Assembly: GCA_963822405.1 (NCBI GenBank)
Contig: CAWGHH010000002.1
Span: forward strand, 198,002-262,001
Length of the DNA: 64,000 nucleotides
Direction of reading: 5' to 3'
DNA from: Candidatus Uhrbacteria bacterium
GTDB lineage: Bacteria; Patescibacteriota; Patescibacteriia; UBA9934
This document shows, piece after piece, positions 3,886-12,102 of the stretch. The notes under the pieces are model-generated. The model saw only the letters and a list, made by a program, of their open reading frames with translations, was not told the origin of the DNA and made no database searches. Positions within the stretch are counted from its first letter, which is position 1, and every line of letters starts with the position of its first letter. The translations under genes were made by a program, and so were the position numbers.

Positions 3886-5010
3886 ATGAAAAAAGTAGCT
3901 TGTGGAATAATCTCGAGAATTAGGGAAGGCGGCAATAAAGAATATTTGCTTGTGAGTTCGACGAAGAACTTTGGGGAATATACTGGTTTCTATTATCCTC
4001 CGGGCGGTCATATTGAAGATGGCGAGAGTGTTCAGGAGGCGCTTATTAGAGAAGTACAGGAAGAGCTTAGTTTGCAAATTAAACCAAATGTAGAGATCAC
4101 GGTGACACCTGGAGACGTTCCAGATCAAGAGACGCATTGGTGGAGTTGTGAATTGATTGGCGGAAACCTAAAGCTTCAACAAGACGAAATCGCTGATGCA
4201 GGATTTTTTACGCGTGAAGAAATGGCTAAGATGAAGATCTGGCCGCAACAAAAAATTTATTTGCGAAGTATATTTCGAAGGTTTAATACAGGCCGTTTAG
4301 ATGGTAGAACATCGCTAATTTTAGATACTTTTCGTTTGACAATTCGACAGAGAATTGTTAGTCTTTTGCGACCGCTGACGACAACCAAAGATTCCAAACT
4401 TTTGTCGGTGGTCCTTCTTTCTAAAAAAGATCGAAGGGGGAATCAATTGAGCAAGAGGTCATTGATCATGACAACGGATAGGACGTTTACTTTTCCTGTG
4501 GCGGTCGCCGCTCTCCTGGAGTGCGGTGCCAAGATTCGTCGTCTTGGCTGGCGAACCAAATTCCACTTGGAGCTGGAGGATTACTCGATATACAGCTCCG
4601 CCGTCATCGTGCGTGTCGCGGACGATGGGAGCAATTCCCGCAATCCGTGGGGAGTTGTCACTGAAGATGATTCCACTGCTGATGATTGGGAGATCATTGA
4701 GGGAGGCGCGAACAGCGAGATCTCGGACGACTTTCGTCCCTCCGTGGGCACCTACGCCCATGCCCTACAATGTCTTCTTGCAGGTTCTCCGGCTATCCGC
4801 ATGTCGGCCGGCTGGCACCCCGCGATGAAGATCTTGCTGGTCGACGGTCAGATCAAGATCGAAGATCGGATAGTCAGTATGGGCAAAGTCATGGTGCTCA
4901 CCCTGCCGAACGGTTCGTACAAGTACTACCGTCCGGCGCCCCAGGACCTGGCCTCGGCCTGGACCGTGATCGAGGAGGTCCGACCTGAACGTAAATCAGC
5001 TGAACCGTAA
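3886..5010 (+). CDS. Nudix hydrolase (N-terminus) continuing in-frame into a GC-rich tandem DUF2829-like (phage-type) domain
   Basis: A Nudix box GGHIEDGESVQEALIREVQEELSL lies in residues 40-63. Residues about 130-194 are a low-complexity R/L/T-rich linker. From the internal ATG at 4468 (MTTDRTFTFPVAVAALLECGAKIRRLGWR...) a second unit (TYAHALQCLLAGSPAIRMSAGWH) repeats the A..ALL.G..IRR.GW signature of the phage DUF2829 family. The DNA from about 4440 to 5010 is visibly much more GC-rich than the flanks. Confidence 0.55.
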   Translation: MKKVACGIISRIREGGNKEYLLVSSTKNFGEYTGFYYPPGGHIEDGESVQEALIREVQEELSLQIKPNVEITVTPGDVPDQETHWWSCELIGGNLKLQQDEIADAGFFTREEMAKMKIWPQQKIYLRSIFRRFNTGRLDGRTSLILDTFRLTIRQRIVSLLRPLTTTKDSKLLSVVLLSKKDRRGNQLSKRSLIMTTDRTFTFPVAVAALLECGAKIRRLGWRTKFHLELEDYSIYSSAVIVRVADDGSNSRNPWGVVTEDDSTADDWEIIEGGANSEISDDFRPSVGTYAHALQCLLAGSPAIRMSAGWHPAMKILLVDGQIKIEDRIVSMGKVMVLTLPNGSYKYYRPAPQDLASAWTVIEEVRPERKSAEP

Positions 5011-5226: not shown

Positions 5227-5796
5227 ATGAATGAGGAGGAGCACAAAAATTCCGAACTACAGGGAGCCGAGCTGATTCAGCGAGCAAAAGTTGACCAGCG
5301 TGCTTTCGAAGAACTTTATAACAAGTATTTTTCGGAATTGTATAGATATGTATTTAGGCGTGTCGGACATCGGGAAACTGCTGAAGACATCCTTTCAATC
5401 GCCTTTACAAAAGTATTCATAAGCCTTGATTCGTATACCGGTGACGAAAGGGGATTTAAATCGTGGTTGTACAAAATATCTACCAATTGCCTCATTGATC
5501 ATTATCGGAAACAGGGCGGGAGGAAAGAGACGCAAATTGAGACAGTCGAACATCTCTTAGAAAGTCAGAACACCGCAGACCAGGAAGTAAAAAGACAATT
5601 CACCAGGGCGGGTATTGACCACGCGCTCCGCAGGCTTTCAAAAGGGGATCAAGAAATAATTCATTTGAAATATTTTGCCGAGTATTCAAATCAAGAAATC
5701 GCCGAGCATCTCCGTATATCCGCGAACAGCTGCGGAGTAAAGATTTACCGAGCCCTGGCCAGGTTCAAGTCACTGTATACCTCTTATGATGAATAA
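5227..5796 (+). CDS. RNA polymerase ECF-type sigma-70 family factor
   Basis: Region 2 reads FEELYNKYFSELYRYVFRRVGHRETAEDILSIAFTKVF. The region 4 helix-turn-helix reads EIIHLKYFAEYSNQEIAEHLRISANSCGVKIYRALARFK. The stop TAA at 5794-5796 overlaps the ATGATG start of the next gene. Confidence 0.85.
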   Translation: MNEEEHKNSELQGAELIQRAKVDQRAFEELYNKYFSELYRYVFRRVGHRETAEDILSIAFTKVFISLDSYTGDERGFKSWLYKISTNCLIDHYRKQGGRKETQIETVEHLLESQNTADQEVKRQFTRAGIDHALRRLSKGDQEIIHLKYFAEYSNQEIAEHLRISANSCGVKIYRALARFKSLYTSYDE

Positions 5797-8700
5797 AAAA
5801 CGTGCTGAAGAATTAGAAAATGCCCTGAATTCAGGGGAAAATGCCGTTGAGCGTAATAATTCCAAATTACAGCCGTTATTAGAGGTAGACGAACTATTAA
5901 CAAAACACGTTTATCCTGATGAGGAGCCACGTTCCGACTTTAAAGAGCGGTTGTTGGCGTCTATAGCATCAGAACGAACTGCTCGCTCAAATCGTATGAA
6001 GCTCCCAAAGTTTTCCCTGCCACATGTCAGGTTTGCCGTGCCATTGCGTTGGTCTGCGGCTGTGGCGTTCGTTGTGCTGGTCTCGGTTGTTGTTGGATCA
6101 ACAGGCCTATTTCCGTTTGGCGGATCGCGTTTGGGGGACTTCAGCCGCCTGATTATTGATGAGGCCTATGCTCAAGATAACTTTGCCATTACCCCAACTG
6201 ACGGTGACACAACTGGTGTAAACGGCGCGTCAGGTTTTACTATTACGAGTCACGTTGATATCTCTCTTGAGGATCTTCGGAACAACATTCGTATTTCCCC
6301 TGAAACAGCCTTTAATCTCACCGCGGTAGACGCGAATACATTTTTTCTTGAGCCACTGACGGATCTCCAGGGTGGCCGGGTCTATACCGTGACTGTTGAC
6401 GCTTCTTACCAGAATTCTTCCGGGCAGTTATCTGAGCGTAATTATTCTTGGGCTTTCCAGGTAAAAGACTTATTTAAGGTTTTACATACCGTGCCAAGAG
6501 ATCTCTCTTCTGGCGTACCGACGGATACCGGAATTGAATTCACCTTTAGCTATCAAAATGTAGAGGGACTGAAGGACGCTTTTTCTATCACGCCCCAGGT
6601 TGATGGCCGGTTTGAAACTCATGGAAAAACTGTCGTTTTTGTTCCTAGCACCAGACTTTCCCCGGCGACTATTTACCACGTGTCTTTAGCTGATTCTGTC
6701 CGGGTGACTGGATCTGTGGAGAAATTACTTGAACCCGTTTCATTCCAATTTGAAACGAGTAGCGGGTCTTCGCAGTCTCACTTCAGCATTCAGGAGCCTA
6801 TGCTTGAATTTGCAACCAGCGATCAAGTAGTGATCCCGGTGTATAGCAGTGAAAAAGCAAAAAGCACCATCAGCACTAAAGTTTATGCGTTTAAGAGTGC
6901 AGATCAGTTTACTGACGCGCTTCGCGAACGAACGGAAATTCCTGTTTGGGCCCGAGCTTCGCGTGGAGCGCATACCGTAAAGACAACCAATCTCTCAGAA
7001 GTTTCTACTTCAGAGGCAAGCATCCAAACTGTTGGATATCAGAACTTTGTACCGCTGCCCGATGAATTAGGAGCGGGACTGTACCTGGTTGAGCTCCGAG
7101 AAGGCGCATACGCCTCACAAGTGCTTATTCAGATTACGGATCTGGCGGTGTATTCAGCTGTTACCTCTACAGATACGATTGTTTGGGTGAATGACACCTC
7201 TACTCGTGGCGCCGTGCAAAATGCCAAAATAGCCTCTCTTGATGGACGCTTGAACGCTTCAACGAACGTTGAAGGAGTTGCCGTCCTTAACGGCGCGGCC
7301 ATGCTTGAGGGCGTCCAGCATCCTTGGAATGTGAATGAATATATTACGGTAACCGCGGGTAATAAGCTGACCGTTGTCCAAATTGGTAAGTCGACAAATT
7401 ATTATTACATCGACACGGAATATACAAAGGATCAGTACTGGGACTATCTCTATACGGACCGGTCAATGTACCAGCCAACGGACACCATTTCTTTCTGGGG
7501 ATTTGTTCAAGGGCGGAATGGATCTACGCCAGGCACAGTGCGCGTCACGCTGGCAACTCAGTCTTACTATGATGATGCCGGTGAAACGATTCCGCTGTAT
7601 GAGGAGACTCTTCCAGTTGTTGGTGGAGCGTATACAGGCTCAACATCATTCTCTCGGTTGACGTCGGGTTCTTATGTCTTGAACGTGTATCAAAACGAAA
7701 CACAGATTGGCAGTCGGTATATTCGGGTAAATGAGTATGAGAAACCAGCCTACCAATTGAGTATCGAACCAGAGAAAAAGGCGGGCTTTGCTACGGAGTC
7801 TTTTGCCTACACGGTAGATGCATCGTTCTTTGAGGGAACACCTGTATCCAGTCTTCCGCTCAGCGCAAAATCATCAAATCGATCAACCATCTCTCCTCAG
7901 TTGACTACCACTTTGGACCAAGACGGGAAGGGCACCTTGACGTTTAAGACAAAATCACAAACCTGTGCCTTTGATAAGTCTTGCAGTCTTTACACCTACG
8001 GAAGCGTTTCTGTTCAGCCAACACTGGCGGAGGAGGCGGATATTGTGGCCTCAGCTCCGCAGATTGTTTTTAATTCCCGGGTGACGGCGGGTGTTTCTGT
8101 CGAGCGATCCGACAGTCAACTGATAACCACAACGGTGGATGCATTTAATATTGATCTTTTAAAGATTAACAAATCTGGGGGCAGCTATTATAGAGAAGAG
8201 GATTATCGTGGTTCTCTTGCGAGCGGAGTGCTGATTCGTGGTCAGATCACGGAAACATCCTACAGCCGCGTCCAAACGGGAGAGGTTTATGACTTCATAA
8301 ATAAAGTGCACTACCCGAAGTATCGGTATGATAGGCAGGAGAAGATTGTTGATACTTTTAATGGCACCACCGGGGCAGATGGTTCTTTTGCTGTCACATA
8401 CCAAGGCGCTGAGGACAAGAGTTACTCGGTGGAAGTGATTCTTCAAGATAAACAAGGAGGTGAGCATCTTCTCTCTGGGTGGAATTATGCAAATGAACGT
8501 TTCCGAGAATGGCGAGAATACGACTATTACAATATCGCGCGCGTTAAAGAAACAAATGCTTTCCGTTTAGGGGAGACGGCGGAGTTTGCCTTTCAGAAAA
8601 ATGGCGAGCCGGTAGTAGCGGATGCGGATGACTCTTTCCTTTTCTTGAAGCTTAAGGAGGGGCTCATAGATCATGAGGTGTCAAGGGATTCGCTCTACTC

Positions 8701-11359
8701 GTTTGTCTTTAACGAAGATGCCGTTCCGAACGTTTCGGTTGACGGAGTGTATTTTGATGGCCAGTCTTACATTGTGCCTGGATATTCCCTGGGCGGTTCA
8801 AACGCCACTGCAAACCTGGATTTGTCTGAACGAGAACTCCGTGTTGCGGTCAGTACGGATAAGGCTGAATATGAACCGGGGGAGAAAGTTATTCTATCCC
8901 TTCGCGTTACTGATGTGAACGGAAAACCGGCGACGTCTGCTGTAAATGTGAACCTTGTTGATGAAGCTTTCTACGCGTTACAAGAAGAAGCGGTAAATCC
9001 GCTTGGCTCGCTGTACCAAAATCTTGGTAGCGGTTTAGCTTTTGTAGGCGAAACACATAAGTATCGTTCGCTTGCAGGTTTAGATAACGGCGGTGAAGGC
9101 GGAGGTTGTTTCTTGCCGGGCACCAGGATTATGCTTGAAAATGGCAGAGAGAAATCCATTGAGGACATTAAAGTTGGGGACCGCATTCTCACAAAAGCGT
9201 CAGAACGATCAGATAAGCTTGTTGGTGCGACGGTGAAACAGGTGTTTGTTCATGACGTGAATGAATACATGGTCTTGAATGGCAAAATCCGGGTTACTCC
9301 CATCCACCGGATGTTTGTGAATTACGGCTGGCAGCCAATTGGGGAGGCTAAGCTTGGCGATGTGCTACTTGGTGCCAACGGTGAGATGGTGCCAATTGCT
9401 TCCATTGAATGGGTGCGTGAACCGGTGACAGTCTATAACTTTGAGGTTGAAGGGCTGCATACCTATATTGCCGATGGTGTCTACGTTCATAATGACAAGG
9501 GCGGTGTTCGGGAAGATTTTGCGGACACAGCGCTCTTTGAATCCGTGAGGACAGATGCAAATGGCCAGGCTACGCTCACCTTTGAGTTGCCGGACAATAT
9601 TACTTCTTGGCGTGTCACAGCGCAGGCCATTAGCCCTGACCTTTATGCAGGTGCCGGGGTGACTCCGATCCGTTCTACAAAACCGGTGTTTGCTGACGCG
9701 GTCATTGCCTCTGAATATCTGGCTTCAGATAAGCCTGAGATTAAAGTCCGCGCTTACGGCACTGCGCTCACAAATGATAGCCGGGTGAATTTTGAGGTCT
9801 CGTCAGAAAGTCTTAAGATTAATGAGTCATTTACAGAAAAGGCGTACGCTTCAAAGTATGTAAGCCTTGGAGATCTTTCTGGCCGCACTGGATCTCATGA
9901 CGTTCTAGTTTCCGCTAAGTCCGGAGCGTATGCTGACGCCCTTAAGCGGACCACGAGCGTTGTAGAATCCCGCATCATGCAGACGGAAGAATCTGTAGAA
10001 ACGGTTACGGATACCACCTCACTTGCGGACAAGGCAGGAGTTGAACTGATCTTCACTGACGCCTCAAGAGGAAAATATTATCAGAACGTTAGAAGTCTTC
10101 AGTACACAAGCGGCGGCAGGGCAGACCAGCTCTCAGCCAGCATTTTGAGCCAGCAACTTCTTGCTGACTACTTTGGCGGAACTAAGCTGTCAGATGCGGA
10201 TCTGACGGCGTATACGACTACAAATGGCTTGATTGCGCTCTTACCGTATGCTGACGGAGATCTGGCACTTACCGCTAAGATAGTTACGGCTGATCCAGAA
10301 CTGGTGGACGGCTATACACTGTCATCAACGCTCCGCGGAATTCTTGACTCTAAAAAATCAACCAATGAAGAGATTGCTCAGGCGCTGTTGGGACTGGCGG
10401 CTCTTGGCGAACCGATCTTAATTCCAATTCAAAACTTGGCCCGGCTTGAAGACCAGTCAGTAACAACCAGGCTCTACACGGCCATGGCTCTGGCGGAAAT
10501 CGGTGACCGTGAGAATGCGAGAGACATATTCGTTGACCTTCTCCGCGATTATGGTGAGAAGACGGACGCATATACTCGCCTAAAATTTTCATCTGACGCA
10601 GAGACGCTGGAAGTGACGGCGCTAGGAACAGTACTTGCAGCCATGGTTCAGGATCCACACATGGAGAAACTTTGGACATACACAAGTACCGTTTATGTGA
10701 AGAATGTCATTACCCCACTTGAGCGCGCGCTCTATCTGGGTGAGGTAATACCAGCGCTTCCGGTGTCGGACACCTCATTTGAACTTGCTGTAAAGGGAAA
10801 GTCTGTCACTATCGATCTCTCAAATGGCAAAACCTATAGCCTACGACTAACGGAAGACCAGGCTACAAGCGCGAACATTCGTTCCGTGAAGGGATCTGCT
10901 GTCCTAACAACGTCACGGCGGGTGGAGAGTAATGGAACCGAAAGGGATGAACTGGTGTCACTCACGCGTGAGTACCGTAATCTCCAGGGACAGGCGGTTA
11001 CTGAGTTTAAAGAAGGGGACGTGATAGAAGTACGCATCGCCACCTCCTTTAGTGGTTCAGCTCCTGACGGGGCGTATCAGATTACAGACCTTGTTCCAAG
11101 CGGACTGACGCCTGTCACTCAGCCGCGCCGTTACAGTAGCCCAAATAAGAACTCAACAGTTTTGCGGCCGTATTCGCTTCAGGGGCAGACGGCAAAGTTC
11201 ATGTATTACAAAGGACAGTACAACAATCGCACATTCAGTTATTACTTGCGCGTGACCTCAATTGGTGAATATACCGCCGAGCCTGCACTGATTGAATATG
11301 CGAACGCGCCGACTATCCGTAGCTTCTCGGAAAACGGGGCCTTAAAGATCACCAGATAG
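5786..11359 (+). CDS. Giant membrane-anchored protein (1857 aa) with an anti-sigma-factor-like N-terminus, an alpha-2-macroglobulin-like MG-domain body without thioester, and an inserted Hint/BIL domain
   Basis: The gene is translationally coupled to the ECF sigma gene by an 11-nt overlap. About 90 cytoplasmic residues are followed by a single transmembrane segment (AAVAFVVLVSVVVGS) and a large extracytoplasmic part. A2M-family hallmarks include YTDRSMYQPTDTISFWGFVQGRNG (MG2-like, nt about 7451-7520). They also include DKAEYEPGEKVILSLRVTDVNGKPATSAVNVNLVDEAF (nt about 8858-8960) and REDFADTALFESVRTDANGQATLTFELPDNITSWRVTAQAIS (MG6 motif, nt about 9500-9630). The C-terminus has an A2M-receptor-like TDLVPSGLTP. 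No CxEQ thioester motif is present. Confidence 0.75.
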   Translation: MMNKKRAEELENALNSGENAVERNNSKLQPLLEVDELLTKHVYPDEEPRSDFKERLLASIASERTARSNRMKLPKFSLPHVRFAVPLRWSAAVAFVVLVSVVVGSTGLFPFGGSRLGDFSRLIIDEAYAQDNFAITPTDGDTTGVNGASGFTITSHVDISLEDLRNNIRISPETAFNLTAVDANTFFLEPLTDLQGGRVYTVTVDASYQNSSGQLSERNYSWAFQVKDLFKVLHTVPRDLSSGVPTDTGIEFTFSYQNVEGLKDAFSITPQVDGRFETHGKTVVFVPSTRLSPATIYHVSLADSVRVTGSVEKLLEPVSFQFETSSGSSQSHFSIQEPMLEFATSDQVVIPVYSSEKAKSTISTKVYAFKSADQFTDALRERTEIPVWARASRGAHTVKTTNLSEVSTSEASIQTVGYQNFVPLPDELGAGLYLVELREGAYASQVLIQITDLAVYSAVTSTDTIVWVNDTSTRGAVQNAKIASLDGRLNASTNVEGVAVLNGAAMLEGVQHPWNVNEYITVTAGNKLTVVQIGKSTNYYYIDTEYTKDQYWDYLYTDRSMYQPTDTISFWGFVQGRNGSTPGTVRVTLATQSYYDDAGETIPLYEETLPVVGGAYTGSTSFSRLTSGSYVLNVYQNETQIGSRYIRVNEYEKPAYQLSIEPEKKAGFATESFAYTVDASFFEGTPVSSLPLSAKSSNRSTISPQLTTTLDQDGKGTLTFKTKSQTCAFDKSCSLYTYGSVSVQPTLAEEADIVASAPQIVFNSRVTAGVSVERSDSQLITTTVDAFNIDLLKINKSGGSYYREEDYRGSLASGVLIRGQITETSYSRVQTGEVYDFINKVHYPKYRYDRQEKIVDTFNGTTGADGSFAVTYQGAEDKSYSVEVILQDKQGGEHLLSGWNYANERFREWREYDYYNIARVKETNAFRLGETAEFAFQKNGEPVVADADDSFLFLKLKEGLIDHEVSRDSLYSFVFNEDAVPNVSVDGVYFDGQSYIVPGYSLGGSNATANLDLSERELRVAVSTDKAEYEPGEKVILSLRVTDVNGKPATSAVNVNLVDEAFYALQEEAVNPLGSLYQNLGSGLAFVGETHKYRSLAGLDNGGEGGGCFLPGTRIMLENGREKSIEDIKVGDRILTKASERSDKLVGATVKQVFVHDVNEYMVLNGKIRVTPIHRMFVNYGWQPIGEAKLGDVLLGANGEMVPIASIEWVREPVTVYNFEVEGLHTYIADGVYVHNDKGGVREDFADTALFESVRTDANGQATLTFELPDNITSWRVTAQAISPDLYAGAGVTPIRSTKPVFADAVIASEYLASDKPEIKVRAYGTALTNDSRVNFEVSSESLKINESFTEKAYASKYVSLGDLSGRTGSHDVLVSAKSGAYADALKRTTSVVESRIMQTEESVETVTDTTSLADKAGVELIFTDASRGKYYQNVRSLQYTSGGRADQLSASILSQQLLADYFGGTKLSDADLTAYTTTNGLIALLPYADGDLALTAKIVTADPELVDGYTLSSTLRGILDSKKSTNEEIAQALLGLAALGEPILIPIQNLARLEDQSVTTRLYTAMALAEIGDRENARDIFVDLLRDYGEKTDAYTRLKFSSDAETLEVTALGTVLAAMVQDPHMEKLWTYTSTVYVKNVITPLERALYLGEVIPALPVSDTSFELAVKGKSVTIDLSNGKTYSLRLTEDQATSANIRSVKGSAVLTTSRRVESNGTERDELVSLTREYRNLQGQAVTEFKEGDVIEVRIATSFSGSAPDGAYQITDLVPSGLTPVTQPRRYSSPNKNSTVLRPYSLQGQTAKFMYYKGQYNNRTFSYYLRVTSIGEYTAEPALIEYANAPTIRSFSENGALKITR
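9107..9493 (+). other. Hint (Hedgehog/intein) domain of bacterial-intein-like (BIL) type embedded in the giant protein
   Basis: Residues 1108-1236 begin GGEGGG-CFLPGTRIML and include ...TVYNFEVEGLHTYIADGVYVHN. Cys1, an intein block-F-like VYNFEVEG.HTY and a terminal His-Asn are all present. The +1 residue is Asp, so canonical protein splicing is not expected. This matches the description of A-type BIL domains. Confidence 0.7.
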
Positions 11360-11361
11360 AT

Positions 11362-12102
11362 ATGAAGGCAACAAAGAGAGGGCTGCTAATCATGCTAGTC
11401 CCTCTTTTTGTTATTTCGAGTATCTTTTTCTTACGAGACTCGCCAAAGACCGCTGCCGTGCGAGGGGTGATTCTGCCTCATCACTTAGTAGCGGGTGACA
11501 TGCTCACTGAAGTGTTAGAGACAATTGATACAAAAACAATTAAACGCATCATTCTCATCGGACCAAATCACTCTGAGCGCGGAGAGTACACCGCGCTGGC
11601 GGCTGGCGTGGAGCAAGAACTCTTTGCGGAGTTACAAAAGGAAGGGATTATTCTGCGCGATGATGCGGGCGTAATGGATGACCATGCCATCACCATGCCT
11701 CTCTCATATCTTCAAGAGGCGATTCCGCAGGCAAAGATATTGTCCATCATTCTGAGTGAGAACCAGTCGATTGAGCGTCTCAAAGAACTCGGCCAACGTC
11801 TGGCTCCGGATGAAGAAACACTCATTGTGGCATCAATTGATTTTTCACATTATCTCTCGCTAGACCAGGCAAACAAAAACGATGAAATCACTAGTGCTCT
11901 AATTGCTTCTCGTGACTACGCCGGACTGTATGAACTGAATAGCGATTATATTGACTCAAGCTCTTCCATCATTGTCTTTCTTACTGCTATGGATGCCGTA
12001 GGAGCCACCGATGGGCGCATAATCAACCACAGCAACTCCGCTCTCATCCTAGATGCCAGTTATGAGTACACTACGAGTTATTTTACAATGATGTTTCGAT
12101 GA
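11362..12102 (+). CDS. Memo-like / AmmeMemoRadiSam system protein B family
   Basis: Motifs in MEMO1 order are present: GVILPHH..AG (for AIIAPHAGY), RIILIGPNHS (for ILGPSHH), DDHAITMPLSYL (for DEHSIEMHLPY) and SIDFSHY (for SSDFCHWG). There is an N-terminal signal or transmembrane segment. The gene starts 2 nt after the giant gene's stop. Confidence 0.65.
   Translation: MKATKRGLLIMLVPLFVISSIFFLRDSPKTAAVRGVILPHHLVAGDMLTEVLETIDTKTIKRIILIGPNHSERGEYTALAAGVEQELFAELQKEGIILRDDAGVMDDHAITMPLSYLQEAIPQAKILSIILSENQSIERLKELGQRLAPDEETLIVASIDFSHYLSLDQANKNDEITSALIASRDYAGLYELNSDYIDSSSSIIVFLTAMDAVGATDGRIINHSNSALILDASYEYTTSYFTMMFR

Follow-up and report, generated by a model that had tools for sequence, protein, structure and literature searches.

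A complete bacterial intein-like Hint domain at the predicted bait-region position of a thioester-less macroglobulin-like protein of Patescibacteria

The host protein and its Hint domain

The DNA analyzed here (the window) is a stretch of 64,000 nucleotides from a Candidatus Uhrbacteria bacterium (contig CAWGHH010000002.1, positions 198,002 to 262,001 of the forward strand), and it encodes an alpha-2-macroglobulin (A2M)-like protein of 1857 amino acids (aa) that carries a Hint domain of the bacterial intein-like (BIL) kind within its scaffold. The gene is a single uninterrupted open reading frame (ORF) in which the Hint makes up residues 1108-1236 (Table 1). The encoded protein reads, in order, as a cytoplasmic N-terminal segment, one transmembrane helix (~aa 89-109), and the domains Big_5, MG2, A2M_BRD, Hint, A2M and bMG10, with MG2, A2M_BRD, A2M and bMG10 all reaching or exceeding their Pfam cut-offs.

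A protein identical to this host is present in NCBI/ENA (P0001). The thioester motif CxEQ is absent from the host and its family (P0001-P0070) and present in more distant classical relatives (P0071-P0106), and by domain composition the host is a thioester-less, membrane-anchored member of the A2M superfamily. A candidate place for the lost motif, YTSGGRADQ, was picked by eye for its resemblance to GCGEQ and not by alignment with a thioester-bearing A2M; the region reads GDRxDQ-like in the family alignment. Public names of family members ("hypothetical," "Ig-like domain-containing," "polymorphic toxin-type HINT domain-containing," and one "YfaS (alpha-2-macroglobulin family)") are uninformative, and the "polymorphic toxin-type HINT domain-containing" label is misleading.

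Table 1. Features of the A2M-like gene, its Hint domain and adjoining genes, in window positions.
Feature	Residues (aa)	Position	Strand	Basis
Extracytoplasmic function (ECF) sigma gene, overlapping the start of the A2M-like gene		5227..5796	+	Pfam Sigma70_r2/r4_2/ECF
A2M-like host gene		5786..11359	+	ORF list, translation, Pfam
A2M_BRD match, upstream of the insertion loop	922-1065	8549..8980	+	Pfam, E 1.9e-8, 35.2 bits, cut-off 22.7
N-terminal flank GLDNGGEGGG, Gly-rich half of the putative bait-equivalent loop, ending Gly-Gly	1098-1107	9077..9106	+	pLDDT <50 in 431-aa model
Hint domain, A-type BIL / PT-HINT kind, 129 aa	1108-1236	9107..9493	+	Pfam, NCBIfam, PDB profile search, AlphaFold2/Foldseek
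Cys1108 (codon TGT), block A, putative nucleophile for an N-S acyl shift at Gly1107-Cys1108	1108	9107..9109	+	Invariant 40/40
Block B, T-P-I-H	1171-1174	9296..9307	+	Thr and His invariant 40/40
Block F, VTVYNFEVEGLHTYIADG	1214-1231	9425..9478	+	V, N, T invariant
Block G, VYVHN; penultimate His and terminal Asn for putative succinimide-forming C-terminal cleavage	1232-1236	9479..9493	+	V-H-N invariant 40/40
C-terminal flank D-K-G-G; Asp at +1, Lys1238 (AAG) at 9497-9499	1237-1240	9494..9505	+	Family alignment
A2M domain	1248-1320	9527..9745	+	Pfam; profile alignment to human A2M 727-806 and C5
YTSGGRADQ, candidate place of the lost thioester motif	1440-1448	10103..10129	+	Picked by eye, GCGEQ resemblance
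Memo-like gene, immediately downstream of the A2M-like gene		11362..12102	+	Pfam Memo E 5.6e-21

Class of the Hint domain

The Hint segment translates without a stop into 129 residues, CFLPGTRIML...TVYNFEVEGLHTYIADGVYVHN (the domain end is also given as VYNFEVEGLHTYIADGVYVHN). An earlier note on this DNA, made from the letters alone, had placed the domain at these coordinates, between the flanks GLDNGGEGGG and DKGGVREDFADTALFESVRTDANGQATLTFELPDNITSWR and with a VHN end, and all of this is exact in the translation. With the whole protein as query, the PT-HINT family (PF07591) matched at E 1.7e-12 and 48.2 bits, its cut-off being 27.7; with the segment alone the match was at E 1e-13. Overlapping Pfam matches to Intein_splicing, Vint, Hom_end_hint, Hint and Hint_2 were weaker than PT-HINT, Intein_splicing reaching 27.2 bits in the whole protein, below its cut-off of 35.8; the NCBIfam model intein_Cterm scored above its cut-off on the Hint and intein_Nterm weakly. 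No further Hint copies were found in the 64-kb window.

In a search of all PDB sequences with a profile of 23 related Hint segments, the best match was the Clostridium thermocellum BIL 2lwy (E 4.1e-27), followed by the Tetrahymena BUBL domain BIL2 (6tmm/6y75, E ~3e-20). A further match, 8w20 (5e-17), is a 1368-aa chain with the deposit name "Intein C-terminal splicing domain-containing protein" and its Hint at aa 1080-1223; the best true intein, Mtu RecA, came at E 7e-13 and Sonic hedgehog at 2.8e-3. An AlphaFold2 model of aa 1098-1248 had a mean predicted local distance difference test score (pLDDT) of 86.9, with the core above 90 and both flanks below 50. The top five Foldseek matches to this model were BIL2 and 2lwy (probability 1.00, TM score 0.77-0.85), with mini-inteins ranking behind the BILs and Hedgehog far behind. 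A Hedgehog Hog domain was rejected, as the Hint ends in His-Asn with the host loop directly after it and Hedgehog structures rank far below BILs.

The domain shares with 2lwy the Hint fold, Cys1, TxxH, the block F motif VYNF..HTY, the terminal His-Asn, a non-nucleophile at +1 and a secreted or surface host (TM score 0.85, normalised to the target). The sequence and structure tests thus all agree that this is a complete A-type BIL (PT-HINT) Hint domain, and the earlier call of an A-type BIL Hint, as opposed to a canonical intein, is borne out by the PT-HINT score, the 2lwy match, Foldseek and the residues themselves.

Catalytic residues and their conservation

A whole-protein search returned a graded set of relatives. 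PT-HINT is carried by P0002-P0018 and P0027, with identities from 76% down to 30%, and P0019-P0070, apart from P0027, belong to the same family without it. Source names of the Hint-bearing proteins are Uhrbacteria, Falkowbacteria, Peregrinibacteria and "Patescibacteria group," and those of the Hint-less proteins are Moraniibacteria, Tepidanaerobacter, Oscillospiraceae and Defluviitaleaceae. A word-indexed homologue search with the 129-aa Hint (17 candidates scored) returned small PKD-Hint proteins and missed the A2M-like family, and an exhaustive profile search over 1.84 billion representatives was used in its place; at least 27 further A2M-like representatives stood among its best 150 matches. 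A scan of GTDB with one genome per species gave 587 relatives of the surrounding region, of which the best 80 were inspected; 52 of these had a scorable Hint, readable through His-Asn in 51, and the Hint is therefore present in at least 52 species-representative genomes.

Many of the Hint-bearing loci (L011, L016, L024, L032, L036-L038, L040, L043, L044, L046 and others) lie in third-party annotation (TPA) assemblies labeled "uncultured Gammaproteobacteria," "Pseudomonadales," "Flavobacteriales" or "Nevskiaceae." These labels look unreliable because the sequences cluster with patescibacterial ones, and they were not used as evidence of presence outside Patescibacteria.

Counted over 40 Hint-bearing proteins, the Hint is 129 aa long in every one, and Gly-1, Cys1, Phe2, Thr6, the block B Thr and His, the block F Val, Asn and Thr, and the terminal Val-His-Asn are all invariant. 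Cys1108 is one of only three Cys residues in the host protein. The block F Asn1218 (F:4) occupies the place of Asp in the Mtu RecA intein (YDLEV), and 2lwy also reads VYNF. The earlier note had proposed aligning the domain to intein and BIL models and had reserved the case of a degenerate, inactive fold lacking the block B Thr and His. With PT-HINT above its cut-off, T1171-P-I-H1174 present with Thr and His in 40/40, and the block A, B, F and G residues intact, the domain is not degenerate, and its residues suggest that it is catalytically competent.

Conservation of the domain also exceeds that of its host. For the first 19 Hint-bearing proteins, mean pairwise identity was 53% in the Hint vs 37% elsewhere, and the Hint was the better conserved part in every pair; over the 40 proteins the mean consensus fraction was 0.65 in the Hint vs 0.49 elsewhere. 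The Hint is under purifying selection.

The insertion site

The Hint sits between the Pfam A2M_BRD and A2M matches and always at the same alignment point, between "AEGGG" and "DKGG-xRExF." At this point Hint-less proteins have the Gly-rich loop alone, for example "AERGG-DGG-ARRDF." A single-sequence PDB search with the whole protein matched the Hint alone and gave nothing for the A2M part, so a family profile was needed there; this was built on the region around the insert, with Hint columns treated as insert states, and it matched human A2M, A2ML1, CD109, C5 and the Escherichia coli protein ECAM at E 1e-11 to 1e-8.

Beyond the insertion, the profile "ekgg-aRedFkdtalF...lpDnlTsWr" aligns to human A2M 727-HTETVRKYFPETWIW...VPDTITEWK (also given as 727-HTETVRKYFPETW), and the bait region of human A2M comprises residues 690-728 (PMC8267569). 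In the host itself, R1242-E-D-F and the A2M domain that it precedes hold the motif RxxFxDT...LPDNITSWR, which is post-bait in A2M and C5. In C5 the insertion point lands at the long segment formed by the linker and the anaphylatoxin domain (ANA). The bait region of ECAM includes Arg923-Leu942 (PMC4498604), and the aligned ECAM spans, 810-1001 in 5a42 and 827-1018 in 4rtd, enclose these residues, with chain and paper numbering not reconciled. These alignments indicate that the insertion loop is the counterpart of the last, C-terminal part of the bait region in A2M and of the linker/anaphylatoxin point in C3 and C5; the earlier suggestion of a bait-equivalent position agrees with the profile alignment and the published bait boundaries (PMC8267569).

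In an AlphaFold2 model of 431 aa (pLDDT 81.5, predicted template modelling score (pTM) 0.57), beta-sandwich domains lie on both sides of the Hint, and the linkers at aa 1095-1105 and 1237-1247 are predicted to be disordered. Foldseek searches with this model returned BILs together with A2M, C3, C4 and C5 chains.

The receiving loop (~9029-9106 and 9494-9520; aa ~1082-1107 and 1237-1245) is Gly-rich and has about 20 residues. Measured between conserved anchors with the Hint subtracted, its length has a median of 20 aa (range 16-26), compared with a median of 20 (range 16-56) in Hint-less proteins. Members with and without the Hint alike keep "SH..P" and "AExGG" before the insertion and R-x-x-F after it. 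On alignment this loop appears to differ from an unconserved bait: it has ~20 aa with "AExGG" kept, vs a 39-residue unconserved bait in A2M (PMC8267569), from which the host also differs in having no CxEQ. The host is a fast-evolving, surface-located protein and the site a length-variable loop, yet the insertion point is fixed in at least 52 species.

The topological site, directly N-terminal of RxxFxET...PDxxTxW, is shared with the A2M bait and the linker/ANA of C3, C4 and C5. In A2M this is where activation cleavage occurs, and in C3 and C5 it holds an inserted domain and a maturation cut. In A2M, C3 and C5 the cut depends on external proteases (target proteases, furin, convertases), whereas the window insert brings its own predicted cleavage chemistry.

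Flanking residues

Gly-1 is invariant in 40/40 proteins and 52/52 species genomes, and Gly-2 is present in 39/40 and 48/52. At +1, the 40 proteins have Asp in 34, Glu in three, and Asn, Gly and Ala in one each, with Cys, Ser or Thr in 0/40; the 51 species genomes have Asp in 20, Gln in 17, Glu in 10, one Ser, and Ala, Gly or Asn in the remainder. A non-nucleophile thus follows the Hint in 90 of 91 sequences, and the absence of a +1 nucleophile is upheld, with no downstream Cys, Ser or Thr able to act as one. The earlier conclusion that canonical splicing is impossible stands for the class-1 mechanism only. BIL domains yield mostly cleaved products (PMC7664689), and in Tetrahymena BIL2 a Lys isopeptide connects the two flanks (PMC8616854).

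The only +1 Ser found in the family is in a Patescibacteria group bacterium (L020, DAIRGB010000008.1), which reads "VHN-SKGGG"; if any family member splices in the manner of a canonical intein, this one would be the obvious candidate.

That the Hint is a canonical intein, or an inactive relic serving as a structural spacer, we regard as extremely improbable. The weak matches to Intein_splicing and intein_Nterm, the intein_Cterm match and the Ser of L020 would fit an intein, and the domain shares with class-1 mini-inteins (Mtu RecA 3ifj, Npu DnaB 4o1r) its fold, blocks A, B, F and G, a size of ~130-140 aa and the absence of an endonuclease. It differs from them in having no +1 nucleophile, in the block F Asn for the Asp of Mtu RecA, and in a host that is not a housekeeping enzyme. 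The BIL match is far better than the intein match, +1 is a non-nucleophile almost throughout, and the insert lies in a loop of a fast-evolving surface protein, not at a conserved active site. A class-1 intein was rejected on Asp1237 at +1, the lack of an endonuclease, the surface-protein loop and co-variation with the host (r = 0.91; see below), and an inactive relic is excluded because every catalytic residue is invariant.

A residue that the earlier note had missed is an invariant Lys shortly after the Hint, found at +2 in 40/40 Hint-bearing proteins and at +2 (43) or +3 (8) in the 51 species genomes. No Hint-less relative has Lys in the column aligned to +2; P0040 has one elsewhere in the loop. 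The pattern extends to the 295 nearest non-A2M Hint domains compared: Lys directly follows His-Asn in 203 of them ("HN-KGG"), and Cys, Ser or Thr does so in 27. Many of the "HN-KGG" domains belong to head-to-tail BIL arrays.

Such arrays occur in P0143, P0144 and P0148-P0151, where 2-10 BIL domains follow one another via "HN-KGG-C" or "HN-KG-C" linkers. In P0107-P0116, each ~220 aa long, a single PKD domain is connected through a Gly/Asn-rich linker to a Hint that shares 42-45% identity with that of the window. These proteins end in "LVHNK" plus 0-8 residues and have hardly any C-terminal flank; their layout (cargo-GG|C-Hint) resembles that of Hedgehog.

Tetrahymena BIL2 (6y75/6tmm), the top Foldseek match (E 2.6e-11, TM score 0.80, ~25% identity), offers a parallel for the flanks. 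Its solved construct likewise lacks a +1 nucleophile (His-Ala-Met after an N143A change). Its N-terminal flank, we assume, ends in Gly-Gly as ubiquitin-like domains do, and that of the window Hint has the same ending. In BIL2 the thioester passes to a Lys epsilon-amine to give an isopeptide (PMC8616854), and the invariant Lys 2-3 residues after His-Asn may play a similar role in the window family. Unlike the window Hint, BIL2 is eukaryotic and cytosolic, has ubiquitin-like flanks, and has His at the block F Asn position.

Predicted self-excision

We consider it probable, largely by analogy with characterized Hint domains, that the Hint excises itself from the loop after export, a reading favored by the complete, conserved catalytic set and established Hint chemistry (PMC8616854, PMC7664689, PMC7765530). 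The ectodomain would be exported by Sec and the Hint would fold outside the cell, where Cys1108 would attack the Gly1107 carbonyl (N-S acyl shift) to form a Gly-thioester, and Asn1236, helped by His1235, would cyclize and break the Asn1236-Asp1237 bond. With no Cys, Ser or Thr at +1, transesterification would not follow, and the thioester would be resolved by the Asp1237 alpha-amine, by the Lys1238 epsilon-amine, or by hydrolysis. The Hint would leave the loop either way. The result would be a re-joined loop as long as that of Hint-less relatives or a molecule of two chains, nicked where activation takes place and held together by the split macroglobulin (MG) domain, as in furin-processed C3.

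Between re-joining and nicking of the flanks, our expectation is split roughly evenly. BIL domains "produce predominantly cleaved products," and one mutation can turn them into efficient splicers (PMC7664689); where a +1 nucleophile is lacking, both ends of the domain are cleaved, and such domains are likewise convertible (PMC7664689, PMC7765530). Flank joining through a Lys isopeptide has its precedent in Tetrahymena BIL2 (PMC8616854). The strongest pointers to an amine, rather than water, as the thioester acceptor are the invariant Lys and the 203/295 "HN-KGG" domains; they suggest such an acceptor and do not prove it.

If nicking prevails, the Hint might have been selected to cut the bait-equivalent loop without re-ligation, so that no foreign protease is needed and a two-chain or conformationally activated form results, much as C3 is processed by furin or A2M is cut in its bait. 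The insert does lie at the bait/linker site and both of its cleavage-competent ends are invariant; BILs that lack a +1 nucleophile yield mainly cleaved products (PMC7664689), and bait cleavage triggers activation in the solved bacterial A2Ms (PMC4498604). We nevertheless hold such self-baiting to be possible rather than probable. Hint-less relatives of the same clade, with the same operon, keep an intact loop of equal length, so constitutive nicking is not needed for the function of the family; the invariant Gly-Gly before Cys1 and the Lys after His-Asn suggest a defined acyl acceptor, not water; and constitutive self-activation would amount to a trap already sprung.

A more speculative view, which we think unlikely, is that the BIL has been domesticated as an acyl-transfer device that places a new reactive thioester at the activation loop of a thioester-less macroglobulin. 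By one route the Gly1107~Cys1108 thioester would pass to the invariant Lys1238 and give an isopeptide-stapled, branched protein, comparable to BIL2 with its ubiquitin-like domains. By another the acceptor would be a lysine on a foreign protein, leaving that protein covalently tethered to the membrane-anchored N-terminal half; if true, the A2M superfamily would have re-invented covalent capture independently. Acyl transfer, if real, would also make "HN-K-G-G," present in ~70% of the nearest Hints, tandem arrays included, the mark of a wider bacterial class of Lys-directed ligases. The related idea that the Hint thioester compensates for the lost thioester of the thioester domain (TED) is weakened, because Hint-less relatives also lack CxEQ.

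Inheritance of the insert

Pairwise identities in the Hint and in the extein correlate closely (Pearson r = 0.91 over the first 19 Hint-bearing proteins). A recent horizontal arrival has no support, as base composition matches the gene: the Hint has a GC fraction of 0.475 against 0.484 +/- 0.018 for the gene, and its third-codon-position value (GC3) is within range. A host tree made by neighbor-joining with Hint columns removed (100 bootstraps) never recovered the Hint-bearing proteins as one clade (0/100). Hint-less P0019 groups with Hint-bearing P0276/P0259 (94%) and Hint-less P0023 with Hint-bearing P0017/P0018 (97%), and because these two nest among Hint-bearing proteins, the Hint apparently underwent more than one loss or, with lower likelihood, more than one gain. 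We limit the claimed extent of gain and loss to these two well-supported mixed groups.

The Hint has no homing endonuclease in its 129 aa. An architecture of the pretoxin-HINT type was also rejected, as the downstream A2M and bMG10 domains are homologous to, and collinear with, those of Hint-less relatives and no toxin families were matched. The Hint is thus neither a homing intein nor a toxin-releasing module, and it appears to behave as a long-resident, vertically inherited, occasionally lost, self-excising insert.

Such behavior might also be that of a benign or selfish passenger, which arose by a single insertion of a mini-intein-like element in a tolerant loop, exits by BIL-A aminolysis, brings the cell no benefit, and keeps its catalytic residues since a non-excising copy would cripple the host. 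Excision would restore the ancestral loop length; in at least one case (P0019, 94% bootstrap) the gene has survived the loss of its Hint; the Hint is independent of the sigma module and the N-terminal domain; and the nearest Hints turn up in tandem arrays as well as in many secreted proteins unrelated to one another, a distribution suggestive of a spreading module. On the other side, the insert has no homing endonuclease, and it has been kept in at least 52 species representatives at a fixed 129 aa with conservation above that of the host. A useless insert would be expected to be lost often, because the loop varies between 16 and 56 residues and imprecise deletions should be tolerable, and the Gly-Gly and Lys of the flanks are co-conserved. 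We rate a passenger without benefit, like self-baiting, as possible rather than probable.

Several points weigh against self-excision as the explanation of the insert, or blur it. The conserved catalytic residues fit a step of useful maturation and, no less well, a parasitic insert that is obliged to excise for the host to function. The Hint is dispensable for core function, because Hint-less relatives with the same operon exist. An extracellular site offers neither thiol nor obvious cofactor, and Cys1108 could be oxidized outside the cell. Where the Hint lies against the MG body is not reliably predicted, because the multi-domain model has a pTM of 0.57. The number and direction of gain and loss events are uncertain, because the tree is neighbor-joining with 100 bootstraps and its deep nodes are weak.

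Comparison with known systems

Classical BIL-A domains are found in hypervariable regions of non-conserved proteins (PMC7765530) and just before the C-terminal toxins of CdiA and other polymorphic toxins (PMC4725963). Unlike these, the Hint described here has its place at a single homologous site of a single protein family across at least 52 species, between two conserved scaffold halves and with no toxin downstream. We found no link between Hint or BIL domains and macroglobulins in the searchable literature. Both BIL and A2M are well known; what is new is their combination, in which an A2M-like protein has a predicted autoprocessing module fixed at its bait/ANA site.

For the A2M and complement field, this family may be a natural experiment on cutting or re-joining the bait loop. 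For the intein and BIL field, it is a rare BIL long held at one homologous site, with Hint-less sisters as built-in controls, and the long-open question of how BILs benefit their hosts becomes directly testable; Lys-directed (isopeptide) resolution may be common to this Hint subfamily as a whole. The hosts are large surface proteins of ultra-small Patescibacteria, the cell-surface biology of which is almost unknown, and the compact 129-aa domain may be of interest for protein engineering.

Neighboring genes

Neighborhoods were compared at eleven loci. An ECF sigma gene lies directly upstream of Hint-bearing genes in the window, P0005, P0006, P0012 and P0027, and of Hint-less genes at P0028 and P0042; it is not upstream of Hint-bearing P0016 and P0018 or of Hint-less P0025 and P0033. 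The presence of the cytoplasmic N-terminal segment does not follow that of the Hint either, several Hint-bearing proteins having none. Because both the sigma gene and the N-terminal segment occur independently of it, the Hint is outside the sigma/anti-sigma logic of the locus.

The earlier note had suggested that Hint cleavage might signal to an anti-sigma domain: release of the distal ectodomain would lead to degradation of the anti-sigma segment and free the ECF sigma factor. The overlap of a sigma gene with the start of the A2M-like gene in the window, P0005, P0006, P0012 and P0027 speaks for such a link, and self-cleaving anti-sigma factors are known (FoxR, by an N-O acyl shift). All four combinations of sigma and Hint presence occur, however, including sigma without Hint (P0028, P0042) and Hint without sigma (P0016, P0018), and several Hint-bearing proteins have no cytoplasmic segment to act on. 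A cut at 1108 would also leave ~1000 extracytoplasmic residues on the anchor, a very large stump unlike the short one that site-2 proteases would be expected to take, judging from RseA/RsiW-type systems; lying so far outside the membrane anchor, Hint cleavage would not resemble a site-1 cut. The proposed signaling link is not supported by these comparisons, and we think it very unlikely.

A Memo-like gene (PF01875, sometimes fused to PGA_cap) lies directly 3' of the A2M-like gene in 9/11 loci, whether Hint-bearing or Hint-less (window, L002, L003, L004, L005, L006, L007, L089, L090). Hint-less Bacillota (Tepidanaerobacter) and Moraniibacteria are among these loci. The A2M-like/Memo pair, with the ECF sigma gene added in a subset, seems to be a conserved two-gene module of monoderm-type bacteria. 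Thioester-less A2Ms of the YfaS/MagD type share with the host a multi-MG scaffold without CxEQ, a likeness at the Pfam-domain level only, and the host family differs from them in its N-terminal transmembrane anchor, its frequent fusion to an anti-sigma-like segment and its Memo-like partner gene.

In the window protein, aa 1-88 (5786-6050) read R-N-N where many family members have the cytoplasmic motif "C-N-D-(P/S)-E...LLE," and the sole anti-sigma model match to this segment is weak (NCBIfam NF052375, E 0.047). Farther upstream, positions 3886-5010 (+) encode a 374-aa protein with an N-terminal NUDIX domain (E 1.7e-14) and a Tad2-like (Thoeris anti-defence 2-like) domain (E 8.7e-8).

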